The notes under the pieces are model-generated. The model did no database searches. It was not told the origin of the DNA and saw only the letters and a list, made by a program, of their open reading frames with translations. Shown in pieces: positions 1 through 46,801 of a stretch of 49,368 nt of DNA (its first letter is position 1; every line of letters starts with the position of its first letter). Where the stretch lies: positions 1 through 49,368 of the IMG/VR virus record IMGVR_UViG_3300020045_009349; one strand, written 5' to 3'. The stretch comes from a virus (Duplodnaviria; Caudoviricetes). The position numbers and the translations under genes are program-made.

Positions 1-86
1 TAACATAACCCACAAGTGGTAAATAAATAATTTGGAGCAAATTTCAACCTGTATTTACAAGTGTATTGTACCGTGATTACTATCAT
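1..86 (-). CDS. Small phage protein, N-terminal part (MIVITVQYTCKYRLKFAPNYLFTTCGLC...), runs off the window edge
   Basis: ATG at 86 with an open frame to position 1. Not in the ORF track because it is truncated. Confidence 0.5.
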   Translation of the reverse strand, partial: MIVITVQYTCKYRLKFAPNYLFTTCGLC

Positions 87-100
87 TTGACTTGTGGTTT

Positions 101-131
101 TATGCTGTTAGCAAGTAGTTATGAGTAATGC
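101..131 (+). other. Array-proximal recombination core (attI-like): GTTAGCAAGTA-GTTATGAGTAATGC
   Basis: 118-131 is the 13/14 reverse complement of 438-451. Two GTTA boxes lie 11 bp apart. Confidence 0.5.
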
Positions 132-514
132 TAATTATCTCGTTCAAAAGTCGATTTTCCTTTTAAATTCGTTCCAAAAATTTCATTTAACGGGTCAATA
201 ACATCTTGTGAAACTCCCATTAATTTTAGTCTTAAATTAGAAATTTCAGTAGTCATTTCTCTTTCTCTTTTTGAAGCATTTCTAACAACTTCATTTAACC
301 CTTCATATCTAAATTCTGCGTGTTCGTAATTTTGTTTAAGTAGTGTGATACTTTTTAAAATAGTCCATTTATGAAAGAATTTAGGAACTCGTTTATAATA
401 CCACCAAAATAAAATGTGATTTGCTTTTAACAACACCGCACTACTCATAACAGCGGTTATAAGCAATTGCCATTTTTGTCTTAAATTTAAAGACCGTTTT
501 GTACTTGTTTTCAT
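131..514 (-). CDS. Cassette 1 hypothetical protein (C-terminal coiled coil)
   Basis: 127-aa ORF. Its start lies inside hairpin 448-575 and its stop abuts core 118-131. Confidence 0.7.
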   Translation of the reverse strand: MKTSTKRSLNLRQKWQLLITAVMSSAVLLKANHILFWWYYKRVPKFFHKWTILKSITLLKQNYEHAEFRYEGLNEVVRNASKREREMTTEISNLRLKLMGVSQDVIDPLNEIFGTNLKGKSTFERDN

Positions 515-586
515 TGTTTATTAATTTGAAGTTTAGGCAGTTTTATTGGCAACTGCTTATAGCCGCAGGACGTTACCTGCAAGTGC
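438..586 (+). repeat. attC-like hairpin site B
   Basis: TAAC(448-451)-AG-CGGTTATAAGCAATTGCCA(454-472)...TGGCAACTGCTTATAGCCG(547-565)-CAGGAC-GTTA(572-575). Confidence 0.8.
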
Positions 587-872
587 TACCTTAGTTCCCA
601 TTTGATAATTTTCGTTTCAGATTTGCAATACAGAGGATGCTTTGGCGAACCATTTTTATTGATGAACAAAGCCATTGCGTTTGGGAACATTTGCGATAAT
701 TCCTTGTCCCTTCTACATTGTTTCACTACTTCAAAATTTCCCCAGGCAAAAACAATGTCCTTGCAAATCGCTCCTATTTCTTTTAACTTCTGTTGGTTTA
801 TCGCAAATTGATGATGTTCATAGGGCACTCCCGATGTATAAAATTCCTTGCACACTTTTGGGTCTGTGCTTT
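586..872 (-). pseudogene. Cassette 2: 5'-deleted DUF1643-family protein
   Basis: In-frame STDPK...IVFAWG...PKHPLY motifs typical of DUF1643. No N-terminal half; the frame is fused directly to the half-site at 873-901. Confidence 0.7.
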
Positions 873-910
873 TGGCAACATCTTATACTAGCGAAACGTT
901 ACCAGTAATG
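873..910 (+). repeat. attC-like half-site C (right arm and core only)
   Basis: TGGCAACATCTTATACTAG-CGAAAC-GTTACCAGTAATG has the same consensus and spacing as the right arms of sites A and B. The partner arm is absent. Confidence 0.75.
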
Positions 911-1324
911 TTACTCAACATTGTCGATATGAAGAAGTTCCCATACATCATCCATACTTGCTTCAATTTCTAAACCAAATTCTTCGGCATCAAAATATCT
1001 AACATAACATTCTCCTTGTTCGTGGTCTATTACGCATTCGGCATCTTCTCCGTTTAATTTAAACGTTCCACATCCTTTGCATTTATCACAAATACTTTCT
1101 TCGGGATATTCTTCTTCTTTCAATGCTCTTGATTGCCATCCTTTAGAATATTGCTCTGATATATAATTAAGAAGTTTTTTTGTTTTCGCTACAAATTCAT
1201 CTTTAGTCATATTTATAGGCTCTTGAATTTCTTCTTTCAAATCAAATAAATCGTCAAAAGAAAAAACACTACTGGTAACATCGTGTATAAGAGATTGCTT
1301 GTTTGGGTCTGTGTTTTCAGGCAT
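911..1324 (-). CDS. Cassette 3 acidic, Cys-rich (CxxCxxC) hypothetical protein
   Basis: 137-aa ORF with CDKCKGC and CVIDHEQGEC. Its start lies inside hairpin 1276-1402. Confidence 0.75.
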   Translation of the reverse strand: MPENTDPNKQSLIHDVTSSVFSFDDLFDLKEEIQEPINMTKDEFVAKTKKLLNYISEQYSKGWQSRALKEEEYPEESICDKCKGCGTFKLNGEDAECVIDHEQGECYVRYFDAEEFGLEIEASMDDVWELLHIDNVE

Positions 1325-1405
1325 CGGGTTTAATTTAAAGATTAGTAATTTTTGGAGGTATTTGGTTCAATCGGCGCAACCTCCCATACACGCCGTCCGT
1401 TATGC
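1267..1405 (+). repeat. attC-like hairpin site A
   Basis: TAAC(1276-1279)-AT-CGTGTATAAGAGATTGC(1282-1298)...GCAACCTCCCATACACG(1376-1392)-CCGTCC-GTTA(1399-1402). The GTTA overlaps the dnaN stop. Confidence 0.8.
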
Positions 1406-2518
1406 TGTAATCAAAACCGGCATTACCAACATCAAAACGCTTTCGAAGTCGTCTTTTTCTGCTAATGGCGTGATCACTCCGGCTCGGTTGGGTTGCGACA
1501 TTTTAATTTTGATTTTTTCTGAAGTCAGGTTGGACAGCATTTCGGCCAGAAAACGAGCATTGAAACCAATTTTCAAATCATCACCATCGCCTTTGCACGT
1601 GAGGTTTTCGACTGCTTTATTGTTGTAATCCTTGTCTTCTGACAAAATGGTTAGCGAATTTCCTTTTTTGTCGAAGATCAATTGGTGCGTGGTTTTGTTC
1701 GCAAAAATCGAAATTCTTTTGATTGATTTTAATAATTCGGCTCTATTGATTTCTAGCGAATTTGGGTTTTCTTTTGGGATAACACCTTCATAGTTGGGGT
1801 ATTTTGCATCTATCAAACGGCAGATCATTTTGGTGCCTTCCATTTCAAATGAAATGTTGGTGCTGTTGTAGCCTATTTTCACTTCTTCGTCTTTTCCCAT
1901 CAATGCGGTGGTCAAAACTTGAATTGGTTTTTTTGGGATGATCAATTGTTTAGCTTCATCGGACTTGATGTCGGTCCTGGTGTATTTTACCAATTTGTTG
2001 GCATCGGTGGCCACGAATACCAATTCATCAGTTTTGAAGTCAAGGCAAACACCGGTTAACATTGCTCTTAGTTCATCGGTTCCGGTGGCAAATAATGTGC
2101 TCGAAAGTGCTTTGTTGAGAATGTGGGCTTCGAGCGTGATTTCTTTGTCCTGTTTTATCTCGGGTGTTTCAGGATATGATTTTGCATCATCAACGGCCAT
2201 TTCGTAGTTTCCGGATAAGCTTTTTATTTCCAGTTCTTTTTCGGAGAAATTCAGGACCAATGATGGTTCGGACAATGATTTTACTATTTCCATAAGCAAA
2301 TCGGCTGCCACGGCAAAGCTTCCGTTTGCTTCGCTGCAAGTGGCTGCGGTTTCTATTTGCAATGTGGTTTCCAGATCGCTGGCAACGATGGTTAATTGGT
2401 GATCCTTGATTTTGAAAAGAAAACATCCCAATACCGGAATGGTGCTTTGTGTTGAAATTACTTTTTTCAAAACATTTAAATTTTTTGCCAATAACTGGCT
2501 CTCGACTGTGATTTTCAT
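1400..2518 (-). CDS. dnaN: DNA polymerase III beta sliding clamp
   Basis: 372 aa; TIPVLGCFLF, ASDLE, RAMLTGV, VATDA, YPNYEGVIP, IGFNARFL and MLVMPV motifs. Confidence 0.97.
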   Translation of the reverse strand: MKITVESQLLAKNLNVLKKVISTQSTIPVLGCFLFKIKDHQLTIVASDLETTLQIETAATCSEANGSFAVAADLLMEIVKSLSEPSLVLNFSEKELEIKSLSGNYEMAVDDAKSYPETPEIKQDKEITLEAHILNKALSSTLFATGTDELRAMLTGVCLDFKTDELVFVATDANKLVKYTRTDIKSDEAKQLIIPKKPIQVLTTALMGKDEEVKIGYNSTNISFEMEGTKMICRLIDAKYPNYEGVIPKENPNSLEINRAELLKSIKRISIFANKTTHQLIFDKKGNSLTILSEDKDYNNKAVENLTCKGDGDDLKIGFNARFLAEMLSNLTSEKIKIKMSQPNRAGVITPLAEKDDFESVLMLVMPVLITA

Positions 2519-2537
2519 AAATTTGATTTTTAATGGT

Positions 2538-3866
2538 TTAGGCTGCTGCTTTTTCTTTGCCTCTCGGCCTTGTTTTGATTACTATTTTTCTAATTTTTTC
2601 GATGTTGCGTTGGACTAATTCAATAATCTTTTCGTGGTGTTCTGTTGATTTATTGCTTAGTCCACGTGATTGTTCAATTTTAATTTCTGGAATTTTTATC
2701 TCTATGGTTTCGGCTCGCTTGCCGTCAACTTTTGCCGATAGTATCAATGATTGTTCCTTGAGATAATATTCGTTGGTATAAACGCAATGGTTGAGTTCGT
2801 CGCCTTCTTCCTTAAATTCGTCAATGCTTTTGAGGATTGCTATTGAAATATTGCCTTTGGTAAATTCTAAATCAAAGAATTTTTGGTTTCGTTCGACGTA
2901 TTCAACAATGGCTTTTTCCAGTTTTTGTTGGCGTTTGATAACTCTCAGCTTTTCGTTTTCTATTTCTTGAAGCCTTTGGATTTCCCTTTTTTTCTTCATC
3001 AACTTGTCGTGTTCTGCTTTCAGGTTCTTTGGACAGACATATTTTGAGTTGCGCAAATCTTTTTTGAAGTATTGAAGCAAGTCCAGGTAATCAAACCACA
3101 TTCCAGCATCCTTGATTTTGTATTTGTTCCTAAAACAGATTTTAATGGAATTCCAATATCTGTTTACGTTGTAGCTGCTGGACAAACAATGACTCAATAA
3201 CGAATATTCTTTTTCTTTTAGAATGGTTTCTGCTTTTGGAGAATTTGGCAATAGCTTTATGGCTTCCAGAAATGTTATTCCGGATAGGTTGGAATTAATA
3301 CCGTATTTTGAATACTCTGGTTTTATTTCGGAATCAGGATGGTATTTTCTGGCATAAACATCATATTTGCTTCTATTCCAGCCTCTGCCTTCCTCTCTAA
3401 TTTCCATTGAACCGGACCAAGAGTCCATACACCAATTGGAATTGTGACTTAATCCATACATCGTTGTTTTGCCGTTTGGCAAGATCCAGTATTGCAGGAT
3501 TTCTTGTAAATAATGCTCAACGGGTTTTCCTTTTTTGTAAGTGGCTATCAATTCAAAGTTTCTGACGATTTGAAATTCTAAATAAACATCGGTGATGGCA
3601 AAATAATTGGTTTGATTGTTGGTTCTTGCCTTTGTTTGCTCGATGGTTAATTTTGAATTGCAATGTGGACAAACAGCCTTTTTTCTTTTTATCAGTTCCA
3701 GTGAGAAGGTTTCGCCACAATCCAGACAAAAAGCGCTGGACTTGTTGGCATATCCTTTGTGCTCTAAACATTCTTTGTAAGCCCATTGTTTTTGGCGCTC
3801 AAATATTTTTGGAAGGTGGCTGCTTAATTCGGCCACCTGAACGTGTAGTTTGGTTCTTGGTTTCAT
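2538..3866 (-). CDS. PcfJ-like protein
   Basis: N-terminal CxxC...CPHC zinc ribbon; C-terminal DYLDLL, PKNLKAEHD, EGDELNHCV and QSRGLSN motifs; follows a pcfK-like gene. Confidence 0.85.
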   Translation of the reverse strand: MKPRTKLHVQVAELSSHLPKIFERQKQWAYKECLEHKGYANKSSAFCLDCGETFSLELIKRKKAVCPHCNSKLTIEQTKARTNNQTNYFAITDVYLEFQIVRNFELIATYKKGKPVEHYLQEILQYWILPNGKTTMYGLSHNSNWCMDSWSGSMEIREEGRGWNRSKYDVYARKYHPDSEIKPEYSKYGINSNLSGITFLEAIKLLPNSPKAETILKEKEYSLLSHCLSSSYNVNRYWNSIKICFRNKYKIKDAGMWFDYLDLLQYFKKDLRNSKYVCPKNLKAEHDKLMKKKREIQRLQEIENEKLRVIKRQQKLEKAIVEYVERNQKFFDLEFTKGNISIAILKSIDEFKEEGDELNHCVYTNEYYLKEQSLILSAKVDGKRAETIEIKIPEIKIEQSRGLSNKSTEHHEKIIELVQRNIEKIRKIVIKTRPRGKEKAAA

Positions 3867-3868
3867 AA

Positions 3869-4396
3869 TCAGGAAAATAAATCTACTTGTTCCACTTCTT
3901 TAGTCTCTTTGGAAACATCCTTCAATTGCTTTTTAGTAGCTTTTTGAACCATTTTCTCTCTTTGCTCCGATACCATTTCATCGATTGCCAATTTTTTAGC
4001 TTCCTGAATGTCTTCTTTGGATAGTTCGATGTTTTCCGAAAGGGTTTTCTTTGCTTCTGTTTTTGCTTCAGAAATAGCCTGTTCCATTGCTTTTTCTTTG
4101 GCCAATGCTTTGTCGTCTTCGGTAAGTTCGACCACGTGATTTACGACTACTCTTGAATTGATGGGCTTTCCGGCTTCCAAATCATCTTCGTCGTAGAAGT
4201 GAACTGCCATTGCATATATTTCTTCGTCTGCAAAGCCGTTGCAACCGCTTTTTTGCACTTGGTTCAGAATGTAAGTGCAGCAGTCTTCAATGTTTTTGTT
4301 TTCCTTTTTGAGCGTTTCTGCAAATAATGGATCGTTGTCGGCCAGTTTTTGCAAATGGTCCTGAATTGTTTTTTTGAATGGGTCTGATGTTTTCAT
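3869..4396 (-). CDS. PcfK-like / AcrIIA9-family protein
   Basis: FKKTIQDHL...LFA...KENKNIEDCCTYILNQVQKSGCNGFADEEIYAMAVHFYDE...VVVNHVVELTE matches the PcfK family, which includes AcrIIA9. Confidence 0.85.
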   Translation of the reverse strand: MKTSDPFKKTIQDHLQKLADNDPLFAETLKKENKNIEDCCTYILNQVQKSGCNGFADEEIYAMAVHFYDEDDLEAGKPINSRVVVNHVVELTEDDKALAKEKAMEQAISEAKTEAKKTLSENIELSKEDIQEAKKLAIDEMVSEQREKMVQKATKKQLKDVSKETKEVEQVDLFS

Positions 4397-4448
4397 AAAA
4401 TTTTTGTTTTTTGTCCTCGACGACAGTTAATAATTTGATTAAAAATGC

Positions 4449-4542
4449 AAAAAGGCTGTAAAATTCACCAAGTCTCACTTTGGTTTCAATTACAGCCTAA
4501 TTAAATAGGTTTTTAAGTTTCGTATAGTGTGAGACTGAAACT
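4449..4542 (-). promoter_or_regulatory. Leader RNA: small hairpin plus terminator-like hairpin with complementary loops
   Basis: Stem AGTTTC/GAAACT (4516-4542) has a loop containing GTCTCAC. Stem AGGCTGTAA/TTACAGCCT plus T-run (4449-4498) has an apical GTGAGAC. Confidence 0.55.
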
Positions 4543-4706
4543 GTATTTCTGCGAGTCTTTCCTCGCTGTCAGAATGCTTTCTCCGTTTAGTAAATATTCC
4601 CGTCGGTCTTGTCCTTTCTCTATTCTTTCCAAGATGTCATCAGTTTGAATAGTCTGCCTATTTCACGTAAGATAATCGCATTCGTCGTTTCTCTATTGGT
4701 GGGTTG

Positions 4707-4780
4707 TTGCGACAGCAGGACTCGAACCTGCGAACTTCTGGTTATGAGCCAGACGAGATAGCCAACTTCTCCACATCGCG
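4707..4780 (-). tRNA. tRNA-Met(CAT), initiator-like
   Basis: Cloverleaf: C1xA72 mismatch, A11-U24, anticodon arm TCTGG-CTCATAA-CCAGA, T arm GCAGG-TTCGAGT-CCTGC; no encoded CCA. Confidence 0.9.
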
Positions 4781-4791
4781 TTATTTAATTA

Positions 4792-4847
4792 CAAATATAA
4801 AAATAAATGTAACATAATTAGCTACAATTGTAATAAATTATATTCTT
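4792..4847 (-). promoter_or_regulatory. Bacteroidota primary-sigma promoter with tandem TGTAAC-N7-GYTACA operators
   Basis: TATATTTG -7 box (4792-4799); boxes at 4808-4826 and 4829-4847; near-copy of 9552-9607. Confidence 0.7.
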
Positions 4848-5572
4848 ATTTTTGAATAATTAAACTCACAAAATTCTGGGTCGTAAATCCCTAACTTCAA
4901 ATTGACTTCGTTTCTTAGTTCAATCCGTTCGTAAGGCGTTTTTTGTTCCTCGTTTCGTTTGAGCTCTGAACGGATGAATGTTGCTTTCAATGCCAATTCA
5001 ATCATATCTCCTTTGGTCAAGTGCAGCGCTTTGTGTCGTTGAATGAATTCTACATATTCAAAATAATCGTTTCCGTATCTTTCAATCAATCCCAAACGGT
5101 ATTTTATGGGATCACCGCTTTTATGGTGGTTGCTGGCGAAAGATTGAATATGAATGTTGTGCAGGTTCAAAGCCGTGGTTCTGTTGGCTCCAACGCTTAC
5201 ATAATGACCTCCGTTCATCTTGCCAAAATCTCCGGTTGCAATGCAAGATTGGCCGTAATCAATTATCCTTGCTATTTCGTTGAAAATGGGTTGAAGGTAT
5301 TTAGCGCGATATTTGTCGGCACTCATTAATTCAATTTTGGTTTCGGAATCTTTTTTATTTTGCTCAATTCGGTTTTCCTTTTGGACTTTTGCCTTGGCAT
5401 AAATCATTGATTTTTCCATCTTGATTTTGCCATTCTCGGAGTTCAAAAGCCAGTTGGAATAACAGCCACACATTTTACCAAGGCCATACACCCGATGCTT
5501 TGTTTTGTGGCCACAACCAAAACCTTTTGCCAATCCTGTTCCAACACACGGTTTTTCTTTTAGCTCTATCAT
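4838..5572 (-). CDS. ninG: NinG-like (Rap) recombination endonuclease
   Basis: RIIDYGQSCIATG...GGHYVSVG...LHNIHIQSFASN...YRLGLIERYG. Confidence 0.8.
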   Translation of the reverse strand: MIELKEKPCVGTGLAKGFGCGHKTKHRVYGLGKMCGCYSNWLLNSENGKIKMEKSMIYAKAKVQKENRIEQNKKDSETKIELMSADKYRAKYLQPIFNEIARIIDYGQSCIATGDFGKMNGGHYVSVGANRTTALNLHNIHIQSFASNHHKSGDPIKYRLGLIERYGNDYFEYVEFIQRHKALHLTKGDMIELALKATFIRSELKRNEEQKTPYERIELRNEVNLKLGIYDPEFCEFNYSKIRI

Positions 5573-5922
5573 CGAAGTACTTTTTTGCAGATTCCTTCAA
5601 TGCTTTTTTGGTCTTTATTGTAGGCATTTATGATAGTTACAATGTTAGCCATTTTCCAGATCGGAACCGATGATATAGTTTTGTAAAACTCATCTACCAC
5701 ATCATAGATAGCTGAAGTAGCTTCCTCTTCTTTGTTGATTGCTTTTTCGAAGTGTTTTGACTCTACTTCACTAAGTTTTAAAATAAAATTATTCACGAAG
5801 TTTTTGAAAGCTCCTGTAACAAATGTTTTTGTTTTGCTTTCTGCCTTAAAATCAGAAAGGTAATTCAGCAGCACTTGTGCGAGAATTTTAATATGTATTA
5901 ATTTTGCGTCTTGTGGTATCAT
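5569..5922 (-). CDS. Hypothetical protein
   Basis: 117-aa ORF, translationally coupled in the operon. Confidence 0.7.
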   Translation of the reverse strand: MIPQDAKLIHIKILAQVLLNYLSDFKAESKTKTFVTGAFKNFVNNFILKLSEVESKHFEKAINKEEEATSAIYDVVDEFYKTISSVPIWKMANIVTIINAYNKDQKSIEGICKKVLR

Positions 5923-5931
5923 AATTCAGTT

Positions 5932-6144
5932 TTAGATTGTTTTCTTAAAAAATTGGGGATATTCTTCTCTTAAAAATTCCACTTCAAAAGGATAAAGTTT
6001 GTGGCTTGATTTGATCGTGTAATCATCATTGACCGTTATCGTTACTTCTTCGGCATTGTTCCTGAAAATGAAATAGGTATTTACAAGGCTCTTGGCTTTT
6101 ACAAATACCACATTGTCGCTGGGGGTGAGTTGCACGATTTTCAT
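5932..6144 (-). CDS. Hypothetical protein
   Basis: 70-aa ORF fitting the operon spacing. Confidence 0.65.
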   Translation of the reverse strand: MKIVQLTPSDNVVFVKAKSLVNTYFIFRNNAEEVTITVNDDYTIKSSHKLYPFEVEFLREEYPQFFKKTI

Positions 6145-6146
6145 AA

Positions 6147-6887
6147 TCAGAATTTAAAATTACCCTTGACCACCAACCTTTTTTGTCTTAAATAATCCAA
6201 ATAAGGTTGAAGCTCCGGTTTTCGTTCCCAATCCTTAATGGTATCTTCCAACATTTGACGATCCATATTTTGAATCATTTCGTCAATTTCTTGGTGCATT
6301 TTTTCAGTCTGTTCCTTTTTTGCTTTTTCGGCTTTTCGTTTTTCGTAGAATTGATGGACTGCATTGCTTCGAATGTCGTTTTCGGCTTGAGTGCTGCTGG
6401 TTTCTTTCTTTTTTATACGCTCAAATTCTATGTATTTTTTTTCGAGATATTCCGGCATCCACTTTGCCAGCACGTTTTGGCCGTCAAGTTTGTAATCTTT
6501 TCCATCCCCAATAATTCCCTGTCTAACTTGTTTGAGCATCAATACCACATCTTCAATAGTTTCATACGGATACTTTTCGACAATATCCGATGCTAATAAA
6601 GCTGATTGGGATTGAGTTAATGATTTTCCAACATTGAAATTGGCGTTAAACCGGTTGAGCAAATAACAAATAGCTGTTATTGTGCCAATTTCGCCAACTG
6701 TTTTTTCTAGTTTTTTCAATTTGGTTCCGTCGATGGCGTGAGATAAACTCAGGTTTTTTTCAAAGACAATCAACCCAACTTCATTGTTGGACGCCAAACA
6801 TTGCATTAACTGCATTGACTGCTGATTGCTTATGGTTAGCATCTGCTCTTTGTGAATTGAGACTTCGTACATTTTCTCTGTTTCCAT
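6147..6887 (-). CDS. Replication-associated hypothetical protein (possible helicase-loader-like)
   Basis: 246-aa ORF directly after the initiator gene; start uncertain because it overlaps 6781-6887. Confidence 0.6.
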   Translation of the reverse strand: METEKMYEVSIHKEQMLTISNQQSMQLMQCLASNNEVGLIVFEKNLSLSHAIDGTKLKKLEKTVGEIGTITAICYLLNRFNANFNVGKSLTQSQSALLASDIVEKYPYETIEDVVLMLKQVRQGIIGDGKDYKLDGQNVLAKWMPEYLEKKYIEFERIKKKETSSTQAENDIRSNAVHQFYEKRKAEKAKKEQTEKMHQEIDEMIQNMDRQMLEDTIKDWERKPELQPYLDYLRQKRLVVKGNFKF

Positions 6888-7620
6888 AATTATCTTCTAA
6901 AATTTTAATAAAATTGGCTGGTTTGATAATCCAATCAAAAGTAGCCGTCCAGCTTTCTTTGTTGTCACCTTGTAGAAATGGGGAATCCCGTGTTTTTTGA
7001 ATTACCGACAGAATCGATTCTTTGCCGTGTTGCTTTTCAAGAAGTTTAATCCTGTTTTTTCTGGCATCGGACATTTTTTTTACTTCTGGCAAAACCCCTC
7101 GGTTTGCATTAAAAAAAGAAAGAAGTTTATCAAAATCAATCTTGTGGGATGGAAGTTGATTTGGAAAATCAACAACTCCGTTAGGAGTATCTTCTTTTGT
7201 TTCTTTTTTTAAAAGAATATCAGTTACAGTATCATTTACATTAACAGTAACATTATCATTAACAGTTACACGTTCGTTTGGTTCGTTTTTTGAACCATTG
7301 GTTCGTTTGGTTCGATTTGGTTCAATTTGGTTCGATTCAGGAACAACTATTTTTCTTGCTTCACCGCTTTTTAAACCGGCTAATCGTCCTAATTCTTTTC
7401 GCCTTTCCTTGGTGGTTTCGTATTTGATTAAATCACGCTTCATTTGTAGTTTAATAGGCTCAAAAACAAGCTCTACCATCAAATCTTCTACCACGGGGTT
7501 TTCATCATTTACATAGGATAAAATCGTCATAAACAATTCTCCCTGTTTGTCTTTTGGCATCTTTCTAACGGTATGAATTAGATCAGAATACAACACAAAT
7601 GATTTTTTATCTTCTGCCAT
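6781..7620 (-). CDS. Phage replication initiator (DUF6291-like N-terminus)
   Basis: KKSFVLYSD...QGELFMTILSY N-terminus; NVTVNV low-complexity linker; WTATFDWIIKPANFIKILEDNY C-terminal domain. Confidence 0.8.
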   Translation of the reverse strand: MAEDKKSFVLYSDLIHTVRKMPKDKQGELFMTILSYVNDENPVVEDLMVELVFEPIKLQMKRDLIKYETTKERRKELGRLAGLKSGEARKIVVPESNQIEPNRTKRTNGSKNEPNERVTVNDNVTVNVNDTVTDILLKKETKEDTPNGVVDFPNQLPSHKIDFDKLLSFFNANRGVLPEVKKMSDARKNRIKLLEKQHGKESILSVIQKTRDSPFLQGDNKESWTATFDWIIKPANFIKILEDNYGNRENVRSLNSQRADANHKQSAVNAVNAMFGVQQ

Positions 7621-9453: not shown

Positions 9454-9545
9454 AAAAAATCCACAATCCTTCGGCTAATGTGGTACGCCTCCAGATTATG
9501 GATGAAATGTCTTTGGATATTAGTTTCGGGTACCACGCCAAAACT
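9454..9545 (-). promoter_or_regulatory. Leader RNA: small hairpin plus terminator-like hairpin with complementary loops
   Basis: Stem AGTTTTGG/CCGAAACT has loop CGTGGTAC. Stem ATCCATAATCT/AGGATTGTGGAT plus T-run has an apical GTACCAC. Confidence 0.55.
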
Positions 9546-9551
9546 TGATTA

Positions 9552-9607
9552 CAAACATACAAAAATTTGTAACAAATAAAGCTACAATTGTAACATATTT
9601 TATTACT
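9552..9607 (-). promoter_or_regulatory. Promoter with tandem operators
   Basis: TATGTTTG -7 box (9552-9559); TGTAAC-AAATAAA-GCTACA (9568-9586) and TGTAAC-ATATTTT-ATTACT (9589-9607). Confidence 0.7.
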
Positions 9608-9615
9608 ATTTTATT

Positions 9616-9989: not shown

Positions 9990-10193
9990 TTAAAAAGTGT
10001 TTTTTGCTTCGAATGCTGTACATGCGGCATCTTTACATTTAATTTTTAATAATCCGTTGTTAGTACGATTTGATTTCCTAACACCGCAATACTGGAATAC
10101 TTTAGAATTACATTCCCATCTTTGGCGATGCTCACAATCTTTACACGTATTTATTACTTCTGGAACCGTTTCTTCAATTTCAAATAGTTTCAT
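9990..10193 (-). CDS. Small Cys-rich hypothetical protein
   Basis: CKDCEH...C...C...CKDAAC. Confidence 0.65.
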   Translation of the reverse strand: MKLFEIEETVPEVINTCKDCEHRQRWECNSKVFQYCGVRKSNRTNNGLLKIKCKDAACTAFEAKNTF

Positions 10194-10630
10194 AAATACT
10201 GTTTATTATTTTCGATTTCTAATTCAATTTGTCTAATCATTACTAAATCGTTGGGTTCAGGAAGATATATTCCGGCTTCTTTGCTGGAGTAATCTCGAAA
10301 ACGATTAATGCACAATGTCATTTCATCTTTGGAAATAGTGGCGAGGCTTTTGTATTCAATACGAATTTCGCCTGTTTTCCTGTTGATGAATTCATACTGA
10401 AAAATTTCAGGGTTTACCAATTTCTTGAAATATTCAAGTTTGATATACTCCGTTGTTTCACCGTATTCCCAAGCAAACCAACCCATTATTAAATGAGCGT
10501 ACTTTAACTGTGGGTAGGTTTTAGGAACCCGCTTTTGTTTAAGTTCAAACATTTGTTTTGTGGCTATGAAAAACTTTATTTTTTCAACTGCTCGCTGGAT
10601 GTCGATTTGCTTTTCGGCGTTGTAGATCAT
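10190..10630 (-). CDS. NinB-like/Orf-like recombination accessory protein (tentative)
   Basis: TYPQLKYAH...KSLATISKDEM...GIYLPEP; TAATG coupling at 10630. Confidence 0.55.
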   Translation of the reverse strand: MIYNAEKQIDIQRAVEKIKFFIATKQMFELKQKRVPKTYPQLKYAHLIMGWFAWEYGETTEYIKLEYFKKLVNPEIFQYEFINRKTGEIRIEYKSLATISKDEMTLCINRFRDYSSKEAGIYLPEPNDLVMIRQIELEIENNKQYL

Positions 10631-11644: not shown

Positions 11645-12676
11645 TTAGAATCCTGGTCCTCCTACTGGAACTTCTTCTTCCGTTGCTACTTCTTCCGGAA
11701 TTTCAAGTTCTTCTTTAACTTCTGGAACGGCAGCAGCTATTTGCAAAACTTCGGCATCAACTACCTCAGCATCTTCAAAGTCCAATGATTGTTTGTTTGC
11801 GTTGGCAATAACATCATTCTGAACAATGGCATCTTTCATTTCGCTTTCCTTTTGGATGATAGCCAAATAATTGTCGTCAATCTTTTTGCTGTCAATAGTG
11901 ATAGCATTAAAAGCGTTTCTTGAAATTGTTTTCAAGGCCATTTCTTCAAACCAACCATCAATTTTTTCTTTGCCTACTTTTTTGCCACCTACCCATTTAT
12001 CTTTTTCACCGCCCCAAAATTCTGCTGAAGCATAAGCCGGCTTTCTTTTTTCGATGTCTTTCAATGAAAAAACTTTCAACTTGTTTTTTGTTGGAAAGTC
12101 CTCAAATTCGTGGTACCAAAAACCGCCTACTACTTCGCCACGGTTAAAGTTATCCGTGATTTGAAAGTCATAGCTTTCAACCTCATTGTTGCGGTCCTTT
12201 TTGTACTGTTTGAAAGTGTCATTAGAGTAAACTAATTCTACTACAACATCCGTTGGAACTTCCAAACCGTATTTTTTAGCTTTCAATTCCATTCCTCGGT
12301 AGCCAATCACAAATCCCATATCGTATTTGTTATTTGCCGTGTTTTTGTAAGGAATCATATTGATATGATTTGGCTGTGTTGGATCAAGCTCGACACTTGA
12401 AAAAGCAATCACATCAACTGCTAATTTTGACATATTCACGTTTTCCCAAGTAAGGGATAATCCATCGCGATATTCCTCTGATTTTGCCAAACGTTTCTTT
12501 TCAGCATCTTTCAGGGTTTGATCTATCTTGATGAAATAGTTCTGGCAAAGTTTCTTTTGGAAAGGAGTTATGGTAACTTCTCCATTGTTTGAAGAAAACT
12601 CTTTGATCACCGCGCCCGTGAATCTTTCACTTTGTGATAATGGCGCTTTTTTTACTTCTGCTACTTGTGTGCTCAT
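11645..12676 (-). CDS. recT: RecT-like single-strand annealing protein
   Basis: IPYKN...IGYRGME...VVELVYSND...RGEVVGGF...WFEEMALKT; located between the AAA ATPase and MBL genes. Confidence 0.8.
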   Translation of the reverse strand: MSTQVAEVKKAPLSQSERFTGAVIKEFSSNNGEVTITPFQKKLCQNYFIKIDQTLKDAEKKRLAKSEEYRDGLSLTWENVNMSKLAVDVIAFSSVELDPTQPNHINMIPYKNTANNKYDMGFVIGYRGMELKAKKYGLEVPTDVVVELVYSNDTFKQYKKDRNNEVESYDFQITDNFNRGEVVGGFWYHEFEDFPTKNKLKVFSLKDIEKRKPAYASAEFWGGEKDKWVGGKKVGKEKIDGWFEEMALKTISRNAFNAITIDSKKIDDNYLAIIQKESEMKDAIVQNDVIANANKQSLDFEDAEVVDAEVLQIAAAVPEVKEELEIPEEVATEEEVPVGGPGF

Positions 12677-16584: not shown

Positions 16585-16616
16585 GTAAAATGTAATAAAT
16601 AATTGCAAATTACTTT

Positions 16617-16637
16617 TATTTATAATTATTCTAAATA
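16617..16637. promoter_or_regulatory. Fur-box-like palindrome just upstream of the repressor ATG
   Basis: TATTTATAATTATTCTAAATA; sister copies at 25625 and 39824. Confidence 0.6.
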
Positions 16638-16645
16638 ATTTAATA

Positions 16646-17044
16646 ATGGAAAACATAGGTGATAGACTAACTCAGCTTCTTAAAAATAAAGGAGTTACCC
16701 GATATGTAGTGAGTGAATACACCGGTATTTCAGAATCTACATTGAGCCGCATTATAAATAAAAACAGCAAGCCAAATATAGAAAATTGCAAATTGCTTGC
16801 AAATTACTTTAATGTTTCAGAGGAATGGTTATTGACTGGTTCTGGTGAAAAAGAACTCATGCATAAGTTATTGGAACCTATGTCCAGGTATGAAAATCAG
16901 GAAATAAATAACAAGAATGATTCATCCCAAAAAGAGATTGACAACGACATATCGGCCGTTAGTAGATTAGCAAAAATGTTGGATGAAGCTTATGAGGAAA
17001 TTAAATCATTGCGTCAGGAATTAGAGCGAAAAAAAAACATTTGA
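16646..17044 (+). CDS. CI-like XRE-family repressor without an S24 peptidase domain
   Basis: IGDRL...SEYTGISESTLSRII...LLANYFNVSEEWLLTGSGE; C-terminal coiled coil. Confidence 0.9.
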   Translation: MENIGDRLTQLLKNKGVTRYVVSEYTGISESTLSRIINKNSKPNIENCKLLANYFNVSEEWLLTGSGEKELMHKLLEPMSRYENQEINNKNDSSQKEIDNDISAVSRLAKMLDEAYEEIKSLRQELERKKNI

Positions 17045-17801: not shown

Positions 17802-18052
17802 TGGAGACTATTGACGAAAGAATACTTCGGCTAATTAGCCTTTTGAAGTATCAAAAAAAGATTCAAACGCTGGAGGAATTTTATAAAGAAATCAATACCA
17901 TCCGGCAAACAATCTATAAAATAAAGAATGACGAGGCGAGCTTTACCGTTTCGCAAATCAGTATTATTTGTAAAAAATATAAGGTAAATGCCAACTGGAT
18001 TTTTGGCACCCAGAAAAATGTTTTTACAACCGAAAACAGCGTGGAAATTTAA
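17795..18052 (+). CDS. Small HTH (XRE-like) protein
   Basis: RQTIYKIKN...FTVSQISIICKKYKVNANWIFG. Confidence 0.7.
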   Translation: MVMETIDERILRLISLLKYQKKIQTLEEFYKEINTIRQTIYKIKNDEASFTVSQISIICKKYKVNANWIFGTQKNVFTTENSVEI

Positions 18053-19239
18053 AAATACTTACTCAATTCGATTGCTTTGTCGGTGTTGCTTTTTCCCATA
18101 TACGTTAGAAAAGTAGATTCTTTCATGTGTCCGGTGGCGCTCATAAGCAAAGCCGTGGGTATTTTACCGTAAAAGTTTGTGGCAAAGGAACGCCGGCCAA
18201 TATGTGAAGTCACGAGCTCATGTTTTGGATATTCTTTCAGCACTTTTCTTTTATTTATCATTTTACCACCATATACCATTTCTTCTATTTTGGCTTTTTT
18301 ACAAACTGTTTTTATCAAAACATTATAATCCGGATCAGTAAACTTTTTAGGAAAATTATAGCCTCTTTTGTTTAAAATTGTGATTACTTTTTTATGAAGT
18401 GGTAATGTCATTATCTTGCCTGTTTTTTGTTGCACAAACTCGATCAGGTTGACTCCGTTTTCCTTTCTTATCATATCTGTAGTAAAACGCATAAAATCAG
18501 AAACTCGCTGGGCTGTGTAGCAAGAAATCAAAAGCCAGTCCCTAGCGTTATCCTGGTCCTCAATTTTGAGCGTTACTTTTTCAATCTCTTCGAGTTCCTG
18601 CTCGTTCAGATAAATGCTAATTGCTTTTTTCTGGATAATCTTTATATCTTCAACTTCAAAATTTATTTGAAGCCCTTTTTTTCGAGCGTGATTGCAGATA
18701 GCCTTGATCTCTTTGAGGTTGTTGTGAATGGTGTTTTCGGCATATCCATTTTCAAGATTGTATTTTTCGAATTCATTTTTAAATTCATTGTTTACATTCT
18801 TGATCAAATAGATTTTCCTGTATAATTTTTGCATTTTAAGCAGCTTATTCTGGACCACTTTTATTTTCATTACCGTTCTATGATGTAGTTCCTCGCCACG
18901 CTCTTTGATATAATAATCAAAATAGTTGACCACGTCCAGAGGAATATCAACTTTTAAAGCCGGGTTTATAAAATTCTTTAACCAAATTAAATTTACCTGT
19001 TCATTAGAACTATTAAAATGTTTTAGTAAATTTGTCTTCAAGTTTTGTAAATCAGTATCCAGATTTTTAAAACTTTCGTTTTTCAAGTTCTTTGGTTTTT
19101 GTTTCGCTTGGCTCCAATCCGATGGATTAATGACATAATTTGTCGTAGTTTGGATATCAAATTTTCTACCATCTTTAAACCGGATATAAATCTTGGATGG
19201 ACTTGTATTTGTTTGAAGAGAGAAGTTTACGGTTGCCAT
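18049..19239 (-). CDS. int: Phage tyrosine integrase
   Basis: Arm-binding N-terminus (IYIRF...INPSDW); catalytic R (TAQRVSD), K (QKTG), HIGR, TGH, Y (FLTYM). Start set at MATVNF because the longer ORF start lies in an arm repeat. Confidence 0.95.
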   Translation of the reverse strand: MATVNFSLQTNTSPSKIYIRFKDGRKFDIQTTTNYVINPSDWSQAKQKPKNLKNESFKNLDTDLQNLKTNLLKHFNSSNEQVNLIWLKNFINPALKVDIPLDVVNYFDYYIKERGEELHHRTVMKIKVVQNKLLKMQKLYRKIYLIKNVNNEFKNEFEKYNLENGYAENTIHNNLKEIKAICNHARKKGLQINFEVEDIKIIQKKAISIYLNEQELEEIEKVTLKIEDQDNARDWLLISCYTAQRVSDFMRFTTDMIRKENGVNLIEFVQQKTGKIMTLPLHKKVITILNKRGYNFPKKFTDPDYNVLIKTVCKKAKIEEMVYGGKMINKRKVLKEYPKHELVTSHIGRRSFATNFYGKIPTALLMSATGHMKESTFLTYMGKSNTDKAIELSKYF

Positions 19240-19269
19240 ACGATTGCATTTAAAAAAACAAATATAATT

Positions 19270-19498
19270 AATTCCCCACATATCCCCCACATTTGATTAA
19301 ATGTTTTTAAACGTGGTTGAATTAAAATGTATTTAAAATCCTTTTACATATTGATTTTATTGATTTTTTAGTAAAATTAAATAAACTTGATAAAAATAAA
19401 GTGAATCCAGTCAAGGTCACTTTTAAAAAACGGTAATCCTAATAAAATAAAGGGCTGCCGTTTTTTTATGAAATAAAATTCCCCACATATCCCCCACA
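19270..19498. other. attP
   Basis: 22-bp direct repeat AATTCCCCACATATCCCCCACA at 19270-19291 and 19477-19498 flanks the tRNA-3'-like core TGAATCCAGTCAAGGTCAC (19402-19420) and a plus-strand terminator (19425-19467). Confidence 0.8.
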
Positions 19499-22744: not shown

Positions 22745-25582
22745 TTAAGGTTTATGAAATATTGTTCTGTTTCCAGTAAGCTTATAAGAAGCACCTTGTG
22801 GTAAATTAGTATCTGCGTCTGCTGCTGCATCATCAGCATAAATAGGAATAGACACATAAATGTGATAGCCGTTTTCGTCGACGTACTCTCGTAAGGTTTC
22901 AGTTTGCATATCTGTGCCGGACGTTAATTTTTGACCTGTCCACACTTCCCATCGACTTTTTCCTGTTCCTTTTCCCGTTCCGGCTTTATTCTTAAGAGTG
23001 CCTCCGTCAAGATTTTCAGTACCTAAAGCATTATTTATTTTTTTATAAATATCACCTCCATTTACAGTTGCGTAGACATCTCCGATACTATTAACAGCTA
23101 AGGCATACCATACCCGTGAAGTTTGACCCAACGCAACAAAACTTCCAGTTCCATTGGTCTGTTTGTAAATATCGCCGTTATTAACAGTTGCATAAATATC
23201 CCCGTTCGTAGCAGCTGCAATTCCCCACCATACCCGTGAAGTTTGGCCTAATGCCACAAAATTACCTGTTCCTGCCGTTTGCATATAAACATCACCATTG
23301 CTTACAGTTGCGTAAATATTTCCATTTGGCGCAGCAGCCAAACCCCTCCAAGTTCTTGAAGTTTGACCTAACGCAACAAAACTTCCCGTTCCATTGGTCT
23401 GTTTATAGATATCACCGCCCTCTGACGATACATAAACATTACCATTTGATGCAATTGCTAATCCCCATAAATAAGGTGTAATTGTTTGTATTAAGTTAAA
23501 ACTTCCCGTTCCGGCTGTTTGCATATAAATTTTTCCATCATCACAAACTGCGTAAACATTGCCATTTGAGTGGAAAGCAATTTTTTTCAATGCTGTAATA
23601 TTATATCCCATAGAGATAAAATTACCAGTATTATTGGTTTGCTTGTAAATATCGTTAGACGCTACCGCATAAACATTATTAGAAAAATCAACAGCTACAC
23701 CATCGTATGCCCTGACAGTTTGGTTTAATCCAACAAAATTCGCGTTATCAACAAAATTAATTGTCCTTCCTGCTGAAATCGTCAAGTCTTGTCCAACAAC
23801 CGTAGAGGAAGATTGTTCTACTCCAAATTCTCTCGCATTTTGATTCCCTAATGTAATATCCTTTGTCGGTGTATTAACTGTTCCAATGCCGAAAAAAGTT
23901 CCAGTATCCCACAATCTTGAAATACCAATAGTTGTAGCTGTCAAAAATTTTGACAAGTAATTTGCAGTTCCTGATGGATTCGCCATTTTAGTCGCAATAC
24001 TTGCATTTATGGCTGTCAAATCTGTATTGTCCAATAAAGTACCGTCCCTGTTTTGCAAGGTGTAAGTTCTTGCCGCCGTGTTTGCATTCGTGAATAGTGA
24101 AGTAAAAGTGTTGGCTATATTTCGAAGCCCAAATTTTCCCGCTAAAAATGTTTTCAATCCGCTAACTTCTTGAACAGATGCCAATACCATATCACCACCA
24201 GCTCCAACTGATGGATGCGTATGCGAAGTAATTTCACCAGTAAGTTCCGCCTCAATTTCAGCCTTGGTAATGTCGCTGTTTTTTTGTGCATTATTCGGTG
24301 CTGTTGAGGGCGTAAATCCTAAAGCCGCAATCACATTGGCATAAGTTAAATTATATAAGAATCTGGCAACTGTCCAATATAGGTTTGTGCTTCCTTCTGG
24401 TAAGGCGTCTGTAGTAGAAGCTCCTGTTGCACCACCCACAATCCATCCTGCTTCATTATCCCAAATCCATTCTTTCGCATCAACTCCTATTCCTGAATCT
24501 ACAATCGCATAATCCCCATCTATGGCTGCAGGATGCGCCGTTGTCAACGCTCCTGACGATGTGTATTTTCCTTTAAAATGTTGGTTGTACGCGGATGAGT
24601 CGAGTTTTGATCCAAGTAAAACATCAGCTTCTGATTTTGTATATCGATCTGCTAATTCTTCGGTCAATCCATCAACATCTAATATTTCTACTGAAGAAAC
24701 TGCGTTTATAATACCAATATAATCGTACCAACCGCTAGCATTAGTGTTAATTCGATAGATGAATTCAATGACTTCTTTTGGTTTTAATACAAAATCAACT
24801 AAGTTTGGGAACATCAGTTTTACAGAAGCAAGACTGCTATTGTGTACTAATGTAATAGCCGTCGATTGATTGTTTCTTAAAGTTAATTTTCGCCCTGGAA
24901 ACAATGCATTTGATGAAGCAACATAAGAAACGCCACCGAATGAGGTATATGTTCCATCAAAAACAATTGAATTGTATTTTGATTTTCCAAAATAATGAAA
25001 ATCAATAACACCACTGCCTTGTAGTAACACGTGTGATTTATCGACTTTCGGAATATAATCGCCATTTATAATTGGAACGCTTGGTATTCCTATTACCGTA
25101 TCATCGACATCAATTTCAGAAATAAAAACAGTACCTATTGGAGTATTTGGCTGTATTCTTATCGTTTCTGATTCATTCCCTTTTATTAAAACAATTTGGT
25201 TTAATTGGTTCGCCACCAAAATATCTGTTCTTAAATAACCGACTTCACATAATGTTTCAGGAATATTGGTATCTGCTACTGTTGCGTAGTTTGTTCCTCC
25301 ATAAATCCAAGAGGCTCCACTTGGTATATTTAATACTAATCCAGAAACTGTTACGTCTCCAATGCTTAATAATTGGCTAAATGTTTTTTCAACAACAGAA
25401 TCAACTACTTTTTGAATTGTCACACTTTCCGAAGTTCCTCCTCTTGAAACGTGAATTTTCGAAGCTGGATCTAAAGTTGATTGAATTGGTAACTCGTCAA
25501 TTTTCTTGGCATTAGTTCCTATTGCATTTAATGCAGTGGTGATAGCTGCCAATCTTTCGGTTACAAATGTTTGAAAACTCAT
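22745..25582 (-). CDS. Tail fibre / receptor-binding protein with a six-repeat beta-propeller
   Basis: G/T/A-rich fibre; TTDALPEGSTNLY motif; six ~40-aa repeats. Start MSFQTF lies just downstream of a promoter. Confidence 0.85.
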   Translation of the reverse strand: MSFQTFVTERLAAITTALNAIGTNAKKIDELPIQSTLDPASKIHVSRGGTSESVTIQKVVDSVVEKTFSQLLSIGDVTVSGLVLNIPSGASWIYGGTNYATVADTNIPETLCEVGYLRTDILVANQLNQIVLIKGNESETIRIQPNTPIGTVFISEIDVDDTVIGIPSVPIINGDYIPKVDKSHVLLQGSGVIDFHYFGKSKYNSIVFDGTYTSFGGVSYVASSNALFPGRKLTLRNNQSTAITLVHNSSLASVKLMFPNLVDFVLKPKEVIEFIYRINTNASGWYDYIGIINAVSSVEILDVDGLTEELADRYTKSEADVLLGSKLDSSAYNQHFKGKYTSSGALTTAHPAAIDGDYAIVDSGIGVDAKEWIWDNEAGWIVGGATGASTTDALPEGSTNLYWTVARFLYNLTYANVIAALGFTPSTAPNNAQKNSDITKAEIEAELTGEITSHTHPSVGAGGDMVLASVQEVSGLKTFLAGKFGLRNIANTFTSLFTNANTAARTYTLQNRDGTLLDNTDLTAINASIATKMANPSGTANYLSKFLTATTIGISRLWDTGTFFGIGTVNTPTKDITLGNQNAREFGVEQSSSTVVGQDLTISAGRTINFVDNANFVGLNQTVRAYDGVAVDFSNNVYAVASNDIYKQTNNTGNFISMGYNITALKKIAFHSNGNVYAVCDDGKIYMQTAGTGSFNLIQTITPYLWGLAIASNGNVYVSSEGGDIYKQTNGTGSFVALGQTSRTWRGLAAAPNGNIYATVSNGDVYMQTAGTGNFVALGQTSRVWWGIAAATNGDIYATVNNGDIYKQTNGTGSFVALGQTSRVWYALAVNSIGDVYATVNGGDIYKKINNALGTENLDGGTLKNKAGTGKGTGKSRWEVWTGQKLTSGTDMQTETLREYVDENGYHIYVSIPIYADDAAADADTNLPQGASYKLTGNRTIFHKP
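23040..23745 (-). repeat. Six ~120-bp intragenic repeats
   Basis: Unit of the type (S/N)FVALGQTSRxWxGxAxxxNGxxYAxxxxGDIY(K/M)QTxGTG. Confidence 0.85.
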
Positions 25583-25601
25583 TTTAAAAGGATTTTGTTT
25601 C

Positions 25602-25648
25602 AACAAATGTAATAAATAATGTTCTATTTAGATTCATTCTAAATAATA
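25602..25648 (-). promoter_or_regulatory. Tail-fibre promoter: -7 box, operator and Fur-box-like palindrome
   Basis: TACATTTG (25604-25611); TATTTAGATTCATTCTAAATA (25625-25645); 41/47 identical to 39801-39847. Confidence 0.7.
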
Positions 25649-25691
25649 AATTATTAAAATAGAGATGATTTAATATCGTAACTTTGTGATT

Positions 25692-39800: not shown

Positions 39801-39847
39801 AACAAATGTAACATATTTTGTTCTATTTAGAATAATTCTAAATAATA
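39801..39847 (-). promoter_or_regulatory. Head-operon promoter: -7 box, operator and Fur-box-like palindrome
   Basis: TACATTTG (39803-39810); perfect palindrome TATTTAGAAT-A-ATTCTAAATA (39824-39844). Confidence 0.72.
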
Positions 39848-39858
39848 TTTTTTAAAAT

Positions 39859-46757: not shown

Positions 46758-46801
46758 CAAAAGTAATAAAATATATTACAGTTGTGACAAAATATGTTCT
46801 T
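46758..46801 (-). promoter_or_regulatory. Promoter with tandem operators upstream of tRNA-Tyr
   Basis: TACTTTTG (46758-46765); boxes at 46762-46780 and 46783-46801, 21 bp apart. Confidence 0.6.

Follow-up and report, generated by a model that had tools for sequence, protein, structure and literature searches.

A Partly Decayed Array of Integron-like Gene Cassettes Beside dnaN of a Probable Flavobacterium Phage

Organization of the Locus

The window analysed here (49,368 bp) is an entire IMG/VR record, linear and about 94% complete, which encodes terminase, portal, capsid and tape measure proteins, RecT, NinG, a beta clamp (DnaN) and one integrase. Since the closest DNA among cultured phages, with the window as query, belongs to Flavobacterium phages, we infer a Flavobacterium-type host. 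No terminal repeat was found between the two window ends, and none of the sequencing runs covers more than 0.11 of the window stretch. The features discussed below are as follows.

1–118, plus strand: putative attI-like docking region, crossover ...GCAAGTAG|TTA at 118/119; the contig starts inside or just before it
119–572, plus strand: cassette 3, intact, 454 bp, presumed newest position; G|TT, reverse gene, site B; homology edges seen in locus L091
131–514, minus strand: gene 3, 127 aa, ATG within site B; family of unknown function with 66 homologues
448–575: site B, 128-bp full attC-like hairpin; TAAC of R'' at 448, G|TTA of R' at 572; covariance-model score 93.4 bits
573–898, plus strand: cassette 2, internally deleted; 5' half of the gene and left arm and loop of the site are gone
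586–870, minus strand: DUF1643 remnant (PF07799, phrog_3230; profile match), C-terminal half only
871–901: half-site C, a lone right arm whose R' G|TTA lies at 898; motif match, predicted unable to fold
899–1399, plus strand: cassette 1, intact, 501 bp, presumed oldest position; G|TT, reverse gene, site A; paired ends
911–1324, minus strand: gene 1, 137 aa, ATG at 1324 within site A; 34 homologues; the frame passes through the R'' arm
1276–1402: site A, 127-bp full attC-like hairpin, its R' core overlapping the stop codon of dnaN; covariance-model score 51.6 bits
1400–2518, minus strand: dnaN (beta clamp), a fixed phage gene reading towards the array; not a cassette
11645–12676: RecT annealase, also encoded by this phage
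18049–19290, minus strand: phage integrase, 413 aa, the sole tyrosine recombinase in the contig

The original prediction placed two full hairpin sites and one half-site among three short genes, and the motif matches recover all of them; the independent model described below recovers the two full sites. Right-arm motifs match at 549–575, 875–901 and 1376–1402, and left-arm motifs at 448–470 and 1276–1298; each motif matched 0.03 times in shuffled sequence, although the patterns were derived from these very sites. For half-site C, a left-arm motif search found no left arm, and the covariance model gave no match. The model folds site B on the minus (bottom) strand, where three A/G arm mismatches of site A also become G.T pairs. 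The pairing of cassette ends was recomputed with the same outcome, 13/14 for 118–131 against 438–451 and 12/13 for 898–910 against 1267–1279, whereas the flanks within single sites, predicted to be non-complementary, pair at 6/14 and 4/14 positions. Rfam returned no relevant match at E ≤ 5 in window positions 1–3000 or in loci L003–L005; the Rfam family Flavo-1 was considered as an identity of the sites and rejected, as it does not match the window.

Of the three genes, two stand as described. The products of genes 1 and 3 belong to families of unknown function; gene 3 has no match in Pfam, PHROG or NCBIfam, and the ESM Atlas gave no usable lead for either. The middle gene is instead the C-terminal half of a DUF1643 protein left after a deletion. 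Full homologues of 170 and 173 aa are found in L097 and L098, the remnant is joined to arm C via the deletion at about 870, and its upstream frame is closed by a stop in arm C.

The relatives L001 and L002 possess dnaN and, in a model scan, no cassette site. The L002 dnaN is 77% identical to that of the window, and the stretch between it and a methylase gene holds unrelated small genes and no sites. No empty dnaN junction was found in a close relative, L001 and L002 both holding unrelated genes there.

Elsewhere in the window, an AT-rich intergenic motif (AATGTAAC...TACAATTGTAAC) recurs at 4785–4852, 9545–9612, 16594–16650, 25602–25658, 39801–39857 and 46759–46798 and is possibly a phage promoter or operator. 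Tandem repeats of 120 bp occupy 23033–23658 within a 953-aa gene (22745–25606), the product of which is likely a tail-associated protein.

A Family of Covarying Hairpin Sites

A covariance model was built from 47 sites of other phages and hosts, selected out of 116 detected ones for their length, score and non-redundancy, with no window site included and near-identical copies of site B excluded. On the 49-kb window it gives significant matches to sites B (93.4 bits) and A (51.6 bits) only, the next match reaching 15.9 bits. Stem covariation in the 47 sites is 0.656, compared with 0.141 after shuffling and at most 0.145 after sliding, and 16 of 23 stem pairs have changed on both sides. Two positions hold near-invariant bottom-strand G.T pairs (46/47 sites), and all 47 sites have a G after the bottom-strand AAC of R'. 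The aligned stem is symmetric for 18 pairs and carries its excess bases on the R' arm as a 3–4 nt bulge; the R'-arm offset is 4 in 93/116 sites and 3 in 18/116, as found by a detector that disallowed offsets below 2. Across arrays, cassette ends match at 6.6–7.1 of 10 positions, against 3.3–3.4 for the flanks of single sites.

Because our detector credited bottom-strand G.T pairs in part and chose sites with paired arms, it favours that strand and inflates the paired percentage. The 93% arm pairing of the selected sites is thus partly built in, and the energy bias towards the bottom strand (40/50 and 46/66) comes from the same biased detector.

A search of Bacteroidota with such a model, proposed along with the original prediction, found the family in 61 of 121 sampled genomes, spread phylum-wide and including one supplier of training sites. 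Model matches place the cassette-site family in phages as well. In one 93-kb phage record (L114, L115), rated 100% complete and lacking a PF00589 gene, 35 model matches lie in 33 kb on a single strand.

Evidence for Movement of the Cassettes

The original prediction held units 119–572 and 899–1399 to be mobile cassettes with G|TT junctions and suggested comparing phages for cassette content and order, and such comparisons bear it out. Unit 119–572 is found again in L091, where the alignment limits are exactly 118–575 (437/458 identical), so that the homology is bounded by the G|TT cores. Run X3 yields a 24-kb contig with a match to 118–575 between different flanks, and L006 carries the unit beside different neighbours. 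Compensated changes in both cassette ends are seen in L008 for gene 1 and in L094 for gene 3. Both genes also occur in plain form, without cassette ends (L093 and L096 for gene 3, L009 for gene 1).

A clean rearrangement is visible among cultured phages. Genomes lillamy9-7 and lillamy9-3 equal lillamy9-6 with one 439-bp unit moved from 5637–6075 to first position, and the lillamy9-6 sequence relocated accordingly shows no mismatch against lillamy9-7 over 1–6977 or against lillamy9-3 over 1–7008. The optimal cut positions, 2036–2041, form a 6-nt window spanning G|TTAT. This relocation is known from assembled genomes, and lillamy9-3 and 9-7 may share one event. Eight cultured phages have one common landing site, after which 6 different units stand first; in three others the 439-bp unit is missing and the junction is exact. 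Apart from the core, the landing site has nothing in common with the hairpins. In the paper on the lillamy phages, the words "cassette" and "integrase" are absent from the main text (PMC7077304).

Taken on sequence comparison, these observations support the reading of the window array as site-specifically mobile cassettes with G|TT junctions.

The Docking Region

Contigs from three of four runs, all three belonging to one study, share positions 1–122, 1–135 or 98–134 with the window and then continue with other sequence; two other contigs diverge at position 100 into a variant ending again in TAG|TTA. If 1–118 is read as an attI-like region, the newest unit is cassette 3 and the oldest is cassette 1, the one with the site that overlaps the stop codon of dnaN, so dnaN would mark the old end of the array and not its growing end. 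The original prediction missed this docking region and the orientation of the array that follows from it, along with the break in the middle cassette and the reversed polarity described below.

Region 1–118 is matched neither by the covariance model nor by a matrix built from host attI regions, on which the junction at 118 scores -0.1 and ranks 115 of 2153. The landing site of the cultured phages also fails on this matrix (rank 144 of 549), and the L006 junction ranks first; the matrix consists of 26 automatic picks, three of which (L049, L066 and L089) look wrong and were kept. Only chance-level matches to region 1–121 were found in 401 Flavobacterium genomes, and collection scans returned no relative; one match inside a polysaccharide-export gene was dismissed as chance.

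A hairpin at 1–110 was considered as a fourth attC-like site and rejected, as it lacks the invariant positions and is missed by the model. The region contains an imperfect inverted repeat (1–19 against 89–110), which falls outside the attC-like family. An 11-nt direct repeat at 100–110 and 1400–1410 (10/11 identical) flanks the array, and the left copy is absent from the variant docking site.

Candidate Recombinases

A degenerate arm pattern identified 19 genome loci. At one of them, L032, a gene for a 377-aa tyrosine recombinase is followed directly by an attI-like junction and sites, and homologues of this host Xer-like enzyme were found in 53 of 121 Flavobacterium genomes. The sequence AG|TT was picked after the recombinase stop codon in 26 of 30 host loci, mostly about 100 nt on (three picks look wrong), and the distance from stop to attI-like site in hosts is 89–116 nt. 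Among 16 extended host loci, our detector called 3–19 top-strand sites in nine, a few of them weak, and none in four; two are too short and one lacks the motif; host arrays reach 19 sites in 18 kb. Of 18 short recombinase loci examined (from 30 fetched), 11 have model sites no more than 1.5 kb away, as against none of six control recombinase loci. The L032 enzyme scores 212 bits on the IntI model TIGR02249, against a cut-off of 265 bits, and passes the NCBIfam XerA-type model. The IntI insertion is absent from the array-linked enzyme, which has 19 aa at this place against 61 aa in VchIntIA and is thus about 42 aa shorter. Judging by synteny, on which the link rests, this Xer-like enzyme likely acts on the site family.

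As originally predicted, the window holds no IntI, and none is encoded anywhere in the contig. The only recombinase was further thought to be an arm-type integrase; the 413-aa integrase is indeed the sole tyrosine recombinase, but Pfam and NCBIfam detect no arm-binding domain in it, and RecT is encoded as well. That it stands alone in the contig is the one argument for this integrase moving the cassettes, which we regard as extremely improbable, as the same kind of unit is shuffled in phages without any integrase and the enzyme is unrelated to the array-linked family (pairwise BLASTP against the host cassette enzyme, E = 0.11).

The source of the cassette recombinase is most likely the host. 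An enzyme encoded just past the contig end is a distinctly weaker candidate, and one that escaped recognition is very improbable. The second option would mean that the phage encodes its own Xer-like recombinase just left of position 1, the contig end having cut a complete platform. A linear, about 94% complete contig whose ends share no terminal repeat leaves room for such a gene; the G|TT lies 117 nt from position 1, near the 89–116 nt spacing of the host loci; and one phage (G808) does carry a related short Xer-like integrase, with 44% identity over 160 aa. Several observations nevertheless make a phage-encoded enzyme unlikely. A PF00589 tyrosine recombinase is present in none of five cultured array-bearing phages, none of five IMG/VR phages matches the host enzyme at E ≤ 1e-5, nor do L006 and L007, region 1–121 is unlike host attI regions, and L002 has no integrase between dnaN and the methylase gene. 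Peptide patterns found no relatives of the host enzyme in viral contigs. A host-supplied enzyme remains the reading we prefer.

The short integrase of G808 (L111, 1201–2028) follows a 22-bp mini-unit of the form G|TTAG...CTAAC; the first 20 kb of this contig contain no model site under default filters, and L009 from the same contig gives two matches with filters off. Host loci L045–L074 share a conserved TATATTTG-like motif about 20 nt past the recombinase stop, which we take, from the Bacteroidota consensus, to be a possible promoter, together with two short inverted repeats before the attI-like core. On a Chryseobacterium plasmid (NZ_CP041688.1; L118), one gene-less GC-rich unit of about 175 bp occurs both in first position and between cassettes (10138–10315, 12231–12410 and from 14612), and comparable units come after the recombinase in L056 and L057. 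Isolates of the Polaribacter phages Freya (L119, L120) range from 43,978 to 48,920 bp, the extra length lying upstream of an Xer-like integrase that is 33% identical to the host enzyme; one weak site match was the only one there. In NZ_CP041297.1 (L116, 4061–6130), a shortened recombinase gene with 50% identity to the host cassette enzyme precedes tet(X3), and the stretch 4001–7000 of L116 is identical to L117 (FJ012881.1). The tet(X3) unit starts after G|TTA and ends before TAAC and an apparently cut-off left arm, its ends pair at 10/14 positions, and the site model does not match it; it may represent a captured first cassette.

The site family and the enzyme linked to it bear on a further alternative, by which the array would be an ordinary CALIN of classical attC sites served by the classical IntI of some host. 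The cores TAAC and G|TTA, and the G after AAC of R' on the bottom strand (47/47), as in most attC sites (PMC2727003), are what such sites would show, and a CALIN has been described in Polaribacter phage P12002L, one predicted site of which recombined with IntI1 (PMC9892861). However, the modelled stem lacks extrahelical bases on the R''–L'' arm and has its bulge on R', and the linked enzyme falls below the IntI cut-off and lacks the insertion. In P12002L, IntI1 did not recombine attC1, the site with the complete anatomy of the family (PMC9892861); attC2, which it did recombine, has no left TAAC. The IntegronFinder 2.0 paper names one complete integron in Bacteroidetes proper (PMC9024848). We therefore consider the CALIN explanation quite improbable, and membership of classical integrons, part of the original prediction, is not retained.

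Reversed Polarity and Probable Site-Derived Start Codons

Among units with an ORF, and counting related phages, the longest frame lies on the bottom strand in 42/42 phage units and on the top strand in 48/54 host units. The relocated lillamy unit reads G|TTA, reversed gene, TAAC, hairpin, so in phages the hairpin stands before its gene. An ATG within the site that reads through the R'' arm into a long frame is found in 27/52 phage sites versus 3/66 host sites. Gene 1 likely starts at 1324, because conserved N-terminal residues precede the first internal ATG. By motif count, site-derived leaders occur in 22/34 homologues of gene 1 (13 sequences) and 14/66 of gene 3 (12 sequences). Phage sites thus probably often supply the start codon of the gene, with loops its likely source.

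Gene 1 stands behind different hairpins in the window and in L008. The same gene behind many hairpins implies additional exchange of sites at the R'' side or their formation de novo, and a strict G|TT-only model is insufficient; the diversity of leaders likewise suggests repeated cassette formation or site exchange.

These observations can also be cited for another explanation, in which the hairpins serve as recurring promoter, terminator or translation modules, between which RecT-type homologous recombination shuffles the genes, as for the PeSL cassettes of T4-type phages (PMC2839356). The phage does encode RecT, more than half of the phage sites (27/52) have in-frame start codons in their loops, and one gene occurs behind many different sites. 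Such shuffling does not predict cassette-specific pairing of ends outside the hairpin. In addition, a landing site sharing the core alone with the hairpins still takes the unit exactly at G|TT, arm sequences vary while their pairing is kept, and host arrays adjoin one recombinase family. We consider this explanation improbable and retain that of site-specific recombination.

Proposed Mechanism and Implications

We consider it highly probable that positions 1–1402 comprise two intact cassettes, one broken cassette and a likely docking site, belonging to an integron-like system of Bacteroidota and their phages that uses an Xer-like enzyme without the IntI insertion. This tyrosine recombinase would likely cut and join folded hairpin sites at G|TT, with the minus strand, the sense strand of the phage genes, as the probable folded substrate, a choice suggested by the near-invariant bottom-strand G.T pairs. 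Units would likely leave as circles in which their two gene-flanking ends pair and would re-enter at the docking site at 118. Recombination of site B with the docking site would release unit 3 and that of A with B would release 573–1399, while unit 1 could not exit alone because C has one arm. As the natural relocation in cultured phages goes to the first position, the array presumably grows away from dnaN. Transcription of the cassette genes probably comes from the phage early operon by way of dnaN.

A broader reading strikes us as close to evenly balanced, with a slight lean towards doubt: Bacteroidota may possess a second, IntI-independent cassette system, the Xer-like enzyme of which is borrowed by phages with reversed polarity, phage genes being made into cassettes by hairpins that give them a start codon and an N-terminal leader. 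The reversal could then act as a filter silencing cross-landed cassettes, in that host defence cassettes in a phage array, or phage cassettes in a host array, would lie antisense and stay silent.

The IntI insertion is held to enable integrase recombination of folded single strands. An enzyme family lacking it beside long hairpin arrays would give cassette recombination a second route, and this in a phylum in which standard tools detect few integrons; cultured phage-host pairs with a clean relocation make the system directly testable. Gene families that exist both as plain genes and as cassettes bear on how cassettes are made, and the tet(X3) unit beside a related recombinase suggests that the system also fed resistance genes to other bacteria. 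Since methyltransferase genes lie in the arrays, and the methyltransferase content of cultured phages tracks plating efficiency (PMC7077304), shuffling may tune counter-defence.

Comparison with Known Systems

The system works like an integron and departs from integrons in two defining features, the IntI insertion and the extrahelical bases of the L'' arm (PMC2727003, PMC4792948). Shared with classical integrons are AAC/GTT cores, the G|TT crossover, paired cassette ends, entry at a fixed first site, covarying hairpins and a bottom-strand bias (PMC2727003, PMC4889954, PMC4792948). Entry at the first position is seen in cultured phages and, for the window, is suggested by contigs of one study. 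The array-linked recombinase differs from the classical integrase in lacking the insertion and in lying upstream of the array in the same orientation, and the sites differ in having a 3–4 nt R'-arm bulge and no extrahelical bases on the L'' arm. Whereas a classical cassette has its gene on the top strand, upstream of attC and read from Pc, the phage gene is inverted and its site stands before it. Measured against the definition of a CALIN, at least two attC sites without a neighbouring IntI, the window has two full sites and no IntI; these sites are non-canonical attC, and the contig ends 117 nt from the first junction.

Among published systems the closest are phage CALINs and, within Bacteroidota, the rAID-1 clusters of gut Bacteroidales. 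In rAID-1 a XerD-like recombinase lies 5' of genes in the same orientation, which are separated by integron-like intergenic repeats, the recombinase being defined by more than 44% identity to BF9343_RS08045 (bioRxiv 10.1101/471110). Two rAID-1-type immunity arrays lie behind enzymes that share 45–46% identity with that of Flavobacteriales; the spacers in these arrays begin with TAAC, and the cassette ends pair. Their sites, in contrast, are about 45 nt long with ATTA ends and are not matched by the model of the window family, and rAID-1 clusters are chromosomal or plasmid-borne with forward genes. The cargo of rAID-1 consists of at least two co-directional low-GC genes enriched in immunity functions; the window array encodes two proteins of unknown function plus a DUF1643 remnant, and no recombinase is visible upstream of it. 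The available rAID-1 text gives no crossover point, hairpin model or phage version (bioRxiv 10.1101/471110).

The phage CALIN of P12002L is comparable in consisting of integrase-less attC-like clusters in a flavobacterial phage, with methyltransferase cargo (PMC9892861). In P12002L, our covariance model has four matches at E < 0.04, including one training site, and a weak one to attC1 (E = 0.16). That paper takes the sites as ordinary IntI substrates and reads their orientation as mosaicism; it contains no description of the family, of its polarity or of the Xer-like enzyme, and the strings "Flavobacter" and "Bacteroid" are absent from its main text (PMC9892861). The PeSL of T4-type phages resemble the present array in their stem-loop modules between small accessory genes, modular shuffling and mini-circles (PMC2839356), but are promoter-terminator repeats that recombine with one another, whereas the window family has a fixed crossover triplet, unit-specific end pairing and a landing site that is not a repeat.

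Among the best literature matches, with subscription journals thinly covered, no description of the site family, the polarity or the enzyme was found beyond rAID-1 and P12002L. The window array is a small, partly decayed case of this barely described integron-like system.
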